64,000 nucleotides of DNA. Origin: Octopus vulgaris. Its lineage: Eukaryota. The notes beneath the pieces are model-generated. The model ran no database searches. It saw only the letters and a program-made list of their open reading frames with translations, and was not told the origin of the DNA. Location: contig OX597819.1 in NCBI GenBank assembly GCA_951406725.2, positions 34,472,001 through 34,536,000 on the forward strand. The letters run 5' to 3'. The position numbers and the translations under genes are program-made. Of this stretch, positions 1,033 to 31,545 are shown piece by piece. How positions within the stretch are numbered: the stretch's first letter is position 1; each line of letters starts with the position of its first letter.

Positions 1033-1235
1033 TTTATTATATAGAAGGAGTTTACAGGACTTCTACAGGACTAGAACTGTTTCATTCAAGAGAAATCTTC
1101 AGAAATCTTCCTGAAGATTTCTCTTGAATGAAACAGTTCTAGTCCTGTAAAGCTCCTTCTATATAATAAATTAATTTTACTCTGCTATGTATTGAGTACC
1201 TTATTTACTGTGGTTAACCCCGAATCAACCCGGGA

Positions 1236-30292: not shown

Positions 30293-30935
30293 ATACTGTT
30301 AATAGACAAATTTCTGAAGTATTTGTTCTAAGATTATGTCACTTATTGGTGTGGTGTCACTACACAATATCAGAGGGAGACAAAATATTGTCCCTGCAGC
30401 AGCAGTGAGAACACCAGTTACATTTCAGTCTTAGGGTGATTGCTTTTACTCTCTCTGTTTCTCATGATTACGTATTGTTTTCCATACAGTATGTCCATAA
30501 AACATATTTTCTAAGGAGAAATACTGTTATGACTGATCAATCAATATTCAAGGGTAGGCTGACAACGAAAGAGCGATGCTAGAGTTGTGATACTTTGCAT
30601 GCATTAAAAGCAACGAAAATATTTCGGCAAATTAAATTTAAATGTTGAAGTGAATCTAATGGTTTTTGTGTTTTTTTTAAATGGCTTATAAACATCTTCC
30701 ACACTGCAAAAAAAAATTATCATCCTGAAATATAACAATATCTGTTTCAACACACGATTTCATATCAGGAATCTTGCAAAAAAAATTTGTAAATGTATGT
30801 TTACACTTCAGGAGATGGTGGCATAGCTGGAAGTTGATAGCAAATAGCGAAGGGAGATAACCCCATTGTTACCTTTGAGTAGTGAGACATCTCCCCCCTC
30901 CATATTTTTAAGAGGTCATATGCCAACAGGTTTTT

Positions 30936-30999
30936 TGGGATCTGATGATATGCCATAAAGCTAAACCCTTTATGGATGGAAAACCTTAAGGTAATCCTA
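30936..30999 (+). ncRNA. Type I hammerhead ribozyme motif
   Basis: Stem I UGGGAU/AUCCUA; CUGAUGA; stem II CCAUAAAG/CUUUAUGG; GAAA; palindromic stem III ACCUUAAGGU; GUA triplet; one extra A; followed by (TA)n. Confidence 0.8.
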
Positions 31000-31034
31000 T
31001 AAACCAGCCTTCCCATTTTTAATTTATATATATA

Positions 31035-31077
<43 letters not shown>

Positions 31078-31123
31078 ATTTATATATATAATTTACAGAT
31101 ATATATATATATATATATATTAT

Positions 31124-31297
31124 AGGTGCAGGAGTGGCTGTGTAGTAAGTAGCATGCTTACCAACCACATGGTTCCGGGTTCAGTCCCACTGCGTGGCAT
31201 CTTGGGCAAGTGTCTTCTACTATAGCCTCGGGCCAACCAAAGCCTTGTGAGTGGATTTGATTGACAGAAACTCAAAGAAGCCCGTCATAAATATATG

Positions 31298-31345
<48 letters not shown>

Positions 31346-31545
31346 TGTGTCTGTGTTTGTCCCCCTAGCATAGCTTGACAACCGATGCTGGTGTGTTTAC
31401 ATCCCCGTCACTTAGCAAATTGGCAAAAGGGACCAATAGAATAAGTACTGGGCTTACAAAGAATAAATCCCGGGGACGATTTGCTTGACTGAAGGCGGTG
31501 CTCCAGCATGGTCGCAGTAAAATGACTGAAACAAGTAAAAGAGTA
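31124..31545 (+). mobile_element. Full-length SINE family A
   Basis: As 9744-10157. Confidence 0.92.

Follow-up and report, generated by a model that had tools for sequence, protein, structure and literature searches.

A type I hammerhead motif in a Hydra-clade Penelope-like element remnant of Octopus vulgaris, probably inactive, with A in place of the catalytic G12

The window, i.e. the whole stretch of DNA that was analyzed, comprises 64,000 nucleotides of the Octopus vulgaris genome. A sequence-only reading had pointed to a hammerhead motif at 30936-30999. The motif is embedded in a short retroelement copy that is followed by a microsatellite, and the features of the locus are listed below.

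30797..31028, + strand: 5'-truncated copy of a putative Hydra-clade Penelope-like element (PLE), short-end type (no tail), with the last ORF codons and the 3' pseudo-LTR; from similarity matches and alignment to L010
30797..30840, + strand: ORF-end remnant with the CxH motif of the GIY-YIG endonuclease and the family stop codon (30838-30840); from sister translations and alignment
30929..30941, + strand: stem I, 5' strand, with 6 bp at the core and, if continued past a U-U mismatch, about 11 bp
30942..30948, + strand: core C3-U4-G5-A6-N7-G8-A9 (CUGAUGA), intact in the window copy; from the sequence and column counts
30949..30979, + strand: stem II, with U10.1 opposite G11.1 (30979), two basal CpG-derived pairs, an 8-bp helix and a 7-nt loop
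30980..30983, + strand: G12-A13-A14-A15.1 of the family, position 12 being A in the window copy
30983..30992, + strand: stem III, in the family 4 bp around 1 nt, in the window copy a perfect 10-nt palindrome via T30986
30993, + strand: H17, the A of GUA, with the predicted cut on its 3' side, from the hammerhead consensus position
30994..31005, + strand: stem I, 3' strand, with T30998 in place of the family C
31025..31124, no strand: (TA)n microsatellite, of the type into which the family inserts

The letters of the motif were as the sequence-only reading had described them, namely a 6-bp stem I, CUGAUGA, a 10-nt palindrome and GUA. Stem I is formed by 30936-30941 and 30994-30999 and includes one G-U pair; it is longer than had been stated, because 30929-30935 are able to pair with 31000-31005 around the mismatch. 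The triplet GUA (30991-30993) has the NUH form of a hammerhead cut site. The parts of the motif follow one another in the usual sequence for type I. The 8-bp helix (30953-30960/30968-30975) is indeed perfect, but it does not adjoin the core, to which it is linked, in the register of that reading, through U-G, A-U and U-A pairs and a bulged G. Both basal CpG-derived pairs of stem II have decayed to TpG in the window copy. In the 3' half four A's follow a G. In hammerheads G12 A13 A14 stand directly before the A15.1-U16.1 pair, and here the homologous position 12 is A. The same 5-nt word is present in loop 2 (30963-30967) and in the distal 3' strand of stem I (31001-31005), and either copy can pair with 30929-30934. 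It is possible that these alternatives, an extended stem I or a loop-2 pseudoknot, constitute a candidate switch, between which covariation does not decide.

A relaxed scan for type I hammerheads gave the motif a score of 19, compared to 13 and 10 for two other matches in the window. In the same scan 19 was not attained by any of 100 dinucleotide-shuffled versions of the window, whose best matches scored at most 15. The hammerhead motif at 30936-30999 is real and beyond chance. A search with Rfam did not reveal a hammerhead in the whole window at the gathering score, nor in 30500-31400 at E-values up to 10. This result, and the fact that the window copy has almost no coding sequence, would be in line with a chance match, or with a non-autonomous retrozyme instead of a PLE remnant. 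Either was regarded as extremely improbable, because the shuffles argue against a chance match, while the sister copies continue into an endonuclease and a reverse transcriptase, no tandem repeat spans the motif and the window contains a single hammerhead of the family. Elsewhere in the window (1045-1180) two hammerhead-like halves that belong to another family form an inverted pair, with cores at 1111 on the + strand and 1102 on the - strand; in these U faces U at 10.1-11.1, stem III is longer, and stem I is broken by the inversion.

The limits of the window copy and a deletion of 29 nt after 30812 were taken from the pairwise alignment to L010. At the place of the ORF-end remnant, translations of sister copies end with C-L-H-F-R-R...G-S-R-stop. 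The end of the family ORF (window 30813-30850) holds words like YY1, ETS and CCAAT-box sites, which we take to be possibly the promoter of the pseudo-LTR; in the window copy these words have decayed at CpGs. On the 5' side an unrelated repeat of very high copy number, as seen from read depth, adjoins the copy (30708-30796). When the 2.8-Gb genome was searched with 30760-31025, at least 45 matches were found (40 scored of 1723 candidates), which had 81-88% identity if the window copy itself is disregarded, and the window copy was shown to be one of a dispersed family with hundreds of copies.

Longer sister copies run unbroken upstream into a GIY-YIG endonuclease and then into a reverse transcriptase (RT). 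The order RT, linker, GVVY...YIG and pseudo-LTR was found in five broken long copies (L031, L033, L038, L041, L050). RWK was found in L041, and DKT in L033 and L041. In the sister translations the linker CxCX5C reads CSCRDGNRC, and of the two motifs that surround the E and N residues CxxC reads CKLC and CxH reads CLH or CSH; a CCHH motif was absent as judged by eye. According to the available part of the published description, the Hydra clade is defined by RWK, DKT, CxCX5C, CxxC/CxH and a C-terminal endonuclease (PMC8557442). The window family shares these motifs, the C-terminal GIY-YIG domain and the (TA)n targets with Hydra-1_Obim as described there, and in one hand-counted RT stretch 55 of 79 residues were the same (about 70%). 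With Pfam nothing significant was obtained for five broken protein pieces of the family. On the motifs and the published alignment the family was placed in the Hydra clade as a probable member. Further likenesses to Hydra-1_Obim, within the same source, are the location of the type I hammerhead, some 30-40 nt upstream of the 3' end, and the 4 bp around 1 nt that make up stem III. In contrast, the hammerhead stems of the window family differ in sequence, stem II is longer and bulged, and the window copy has A at position 12. Because the 3' UTR and the hammerhead stems differ, the window family was kept separate from Hydra-1_Obim. Hammerheads in Hydra-clade elements, including an octopus member, have already been published, and the window family is another member of a known clade. 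A description of this family was not found in the literature, the search of which did not extend to the repeat databases Repbase and Dfam, which may hold one.

In the endonuclease of the family (L033:1326-2156 and sisters) the GIY strand is separated from the YIG strand by an insert rich in Asn, Ser and Thr. The length of this insert is 526-602 nt in 10 of 13 copies and 207 nt in one, and it is longer in two with secondary insertions; its reading frame is not kept in decayed copies. These about 175-200 codons are unlike the spacing of 27 residues in Hydra-1_Obim and of 13 in Hydra-1_Amil (PMC8557442, in the part available).

Almost every sister copy is terminated by a microsatellite, either (TA)n or one related to it. 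Two types of 3' ends, about 58 nt apart, were discerned among 101 copies, of which 57 are short, like the window copy, and 44 are tailed. The family shows hallmarks of PLEs, i.e. 5'-truncated copies, close inverted pairs, and a tail that runs into a 5' UTR at 13 loci. An intact ORF was not seen: all five long copies that were translated are broken, and among RT matches of at least 56% identity (150 scored of 6011 candidates) the open frames did not exceed 388 aa. From these sequences the family appears to be extinct.

The sequence-only reading had noted one extra A after GAA. The motif was compared with 55 de-duplicated sister copies (loci L002-L060), which had been found by similarity and for which the core was not a selection criterion. 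It was revealed that nothing is inserted at this site, as column 30980 is G in 51 of the 55 sisters and A in four, while T30986 is absent from all 55. Because the sister copies carry G at the homologous column, A30980 replaces the catalytic G12, and G30979 is position 11.1. The 20-nt 3' half of the window motif had one match in the genome, the 19-nt form of the family had 166, and reversed controls had none. The T insertion had two exact matches, the window copy and L131, which keeps G12. Both changes, A30980 and T30986, were shown in these sequence comparisons to be private to the window copy. Deletion of one A from the window copy does not restore the family form, and an extra-A subfamily was rejected for the window copy, with one and two genome matches only. 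Besides the four sisters, A at position 12 recurs at one triplicated older locus, as is expected from decay.

G12 is the general base of the hammerhead, and its replacement by A slows cleavage more than 500-fold in the minimal and about 10^6-fold in the full-length ribozyme (PMC2553840, available in part). The window copy is likely inactive because position 12 is A where the sisters carry the catalytic G12. The perfect 10-nt palindrome is a consequence of the private T30986 insertion; the 4 bp around 1 nt of the family are the commonest stem III layout in the published table of Hydra hammerheads (PMC8557442, in part). Pair 15.4-16.4 is U-A in 52, U-G in seven and C-G in two of 65 aligned rows. 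The suggestion that the window copy is the likeliest active one was thus not borne out, in view of the G12-to-A change, a stem III length that stems from a private insertion, and 20 of 55 sisters with the full core. It does have the top score in the window, but seven of the 55 sisters keep the core and the stems, so that it is not the best-formed copy of its family. The motif is, with good probability, a type I hammerhead in the 3' pseudo-LTR of a 5'-truncated Hydra-clade PLE that has A for the catalytic G12 and is likely inactive.

In structure predictions all three helices can form, yet the predicted dominant fold is a different one. The hammerhead is not the minimum-energy fold, and the z-scores were -1.17 for the 64 nt and -0.49 for 30900-31020. 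Of the three stems, all of which had been called strong, the 8-bp helix (probability 0.99) and the stem III hairpin (about 0.9) are predicted to form, but the probability of stem I was 0.35 in the 64-mer and 0.005 in 30900-31020. The latter transcript, which had been proposed for a cleavage assay, is therefore predicted to misfold stem I. For the linking basal pairs of stem II the probability was 0.19 when the 64-nt piece was folded and 0.015 for 30900-31020. Folding probability is, however, a poor discriminator, since stem I exceeded 0.5 in just 4 of 16 intact sister copies. As the sequence-only reading had stated, stem III is a palindrome and lends itself to dimer formation.

The predictions also bear on a different register of the window copy, in which G30979 would serve as G12, one extra A (13a) would be tolerated in the core and stem II would be based on U-G, A-U and U-A, resulting in a weakly active ribozyme. 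This fold is feasible, at -11.6 kcal/mol compared to -13.3 kcal/mol for the best fold of the 64-mer. The T insertion would close stem III as a monomer hairpin, at the probability given above, or as a stronger dimer, for which -15.2 kcal/mol was calculated compared to -10.2 kcal/mol for a family copy. In addition, natural U13a and U10.1-U11.1 variants have been reported, and U13a is likely tolerated (PMC3088659, available in part). However, an insertion of A at 13a is not among the variants in the available part of that source, and a description of an A13a variant was not found in the literature, the supplementary figures of PMC3088659 and PMC4209133 lying outside the search. Moreover, stem II would be closed by a U-G pair, the predicted probabilities were 0.02-0.19 for the basal pairs of stem II and 0.005-0.35 for stem I, and there is no sign of selection on the window copy. 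As far as the available parts of the sources report, the hammerheads of animal PLEs show poor cleavage even in their intact form (PMC4209133), and in one case the protein of the element was required (PMC11167929). The re-registered ribozyme, with its stem III closed through the T insertion, was judged unlikely. Slightly less likely still is the complete scenario, namely that four chance mutations turned a dead-on-arrival, dimer-type hammerhead into a working monomer with G11.1 as the general base, A13a, a stem II on a new base and a stem III that closes. If re-registration were true, this would be a natural ribozyme core rebuilt by drift, and A13a would be a new tolerated core variant.

The preferred reading, an inactive remnant with A12, was further evaluated by comparing the change rates across the family. 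All core letters are kept in 20 of the 55 sisters; 12 of the 55 differ at G8, which is part of a CpG. Changed positions amounted to 6.4% in the core (35/547), 6.5% in the rest of the hammerhead (167/2561) and 9.5% in the flanks (583/6115). The core rate was lower than that of the flanks (Fisher p 0.014), which was tentatively put down to search bias and subfamily sites. Selection on the core was not shown, as the core is changed no less than the non-core hammerhead positions. The window copy diverges by 6.7% from the family majority, compared to 9.4% for the median sister, whereby the window copy had served as query. For covariation 65 rows were used, i.e. 64 of 102 other hammerhead matches, chosen for near-standard length, and the window copy. 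In total 89.8% of the cells of the family stem pairs are paired. Covariation was weak: two-sided changes occurred in 7 of 20 pairs, 81 of 500 shuffles were as high, and much of it is CpG decay. RNAalifold did not return a structure for 74 copies.

RNA reads were taken from three runs, of which about 6% each was read; the match of their species to the window is unproven and their strandedness is unclear. They were aligned to the window and to L081. Of the 105 reads that aligned at 82% likeness, 103 have G at 30980 and two have A; the latter may come from the window locus. Family reads were found on both strands. On L081 the depth falls smoothly across the cut site, while on the window it drops at 30986 because the reads clip at the private insertion, leaving a depth of about one read per run over 30986-31023. 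It may be that about one read per run comes from the window locus. A pile-up of read starts or ends at the cut site was not observed on the window or L081, and such libraries would rarely show one.

That depth over 30986-31023, and the well-kept stems I and II and CUGAUGA, could be seen as indications that the host has retained a functional ribozyme at this locus. Such an exaptation is very improbable, because G12 has been lost, the divergence of the window copy is inside the family range, no RNA read ends at the cut site, and by eye no host exon was recognized among 90 long frames of the window.

The 5' ends of the copies were compared with the predicted cut site. That cleavage sets the 5' end of the element was not supported, as none of the 13 loci at which the tail runs into a 5' UTR begins at the cut site (three of these loci are duplicates). 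Seven of them, five of which are independent, reach past the cut site, and six begin 85-120 nt after it. In L095, L105, L106 and L113 a partial 5' pseudo-LTR starts within the 3' strand of stem II, about 17-23 nt ahead of the cut site; these copies represent two independent events, perhaps of RT stalling at the hairpin.

The following course of events is proposed for the inactive remnant. The RNA of the source element would have carried the hammerhead in its pseudo-LTR, with a predicted cut after GUA. A stem III of 4 bp with a 1-nt loop would fold best when two copies pair, and the source hammerhead would thus be expected to work best as a dimer of two copies, or with help from a protein. For metazoan PLE hammerheads it has been proposed that the palindromic helix III lets them act as dimers, and their in vitro activity is low (Cervera and De la Pena 2014, PMC4209133, available in part). 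The RNA template was presumably copied into DNA while uncut at the hammerhead site, because sequence from either side of the site, including about 30 nt beyond it, is present in the DNA copy. After insertion the copy would have decayed, as we infer neutrally, by CpG changes, the 29-nt deletion, G12A and the additional T.

The family was compared with other systems, as far as the sources are available in part. Like the metazoan PLE hammerheads (PMC4209133), that of the window family is of type I with a long helix II and a short, palindromic, dimer-suited helix III, and it occurs mostly as single decayed copies, with some close inverted pairs. While 10.1-11.1 is usually G-C in these, the window family has U facing G. 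A real helix III is kept, and hence it is not a minimal hammerhead. Like the Poseidon PAc hammerhead (Frangieh et al. 2024, PMC11167929), it has two alternative 3' ends (tail), an apparently uncut RNA template and no RNA-seq ends at the cut site. However, PAc of Anolis has been assayed and is active with its protein, whereas the window family is known from sequence, and none of its copies seen has an intact ORF. With the animal non-LTR retrozymes (bioRxiv 10.64898/2026.07.22.740005) it shares a type I hammerhead related to PLE pseudo-LTRs, but the window has no tandem units and the sisters carry an RT-EN ORF.

During the genome searches a young Hydra-type family was observed (L132, L133, L134; C1:57208000-57224500 and C4:46713500-46723000), which is about 50% identical to the window family in the RT. 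Its open frames of 717 residues are intact and lie in tandem arrays of 2.6 kb and in inverted pairs, and both types of 3' ends of the window family occur in it. In the hammerhead of its pseudo-LTR core position 4 is C rather than U, stem I has 6 bp, stem III has 4 bp around 1 nt and the cut site is GUU. Three further hammerhead-like motifs with unrelated stems were found in L006 (1291-1374, + strand), L115 (minus strand, near 455) and L125 (near 1185, + strand).

Taken together, the window copy alone is of little significance, as hammerheads in Hydra-clade pseudo-LTRs have already been published. A single copy of a repeat may look the best on account of mutations that are private to it, and the window copy is a warning in this respect. 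The contribution of the family is modest: it is an additional Hydra family in which two types of 3' ends occur, and its endonuclease harbors a long insert of low complexity. Its 5' ends do not map to the cut site, which is consistent with an uncut RNA template. A better target for unraveling the role of PLE hammerheads would be the young, intact, tandem Hydra family L132-L134.
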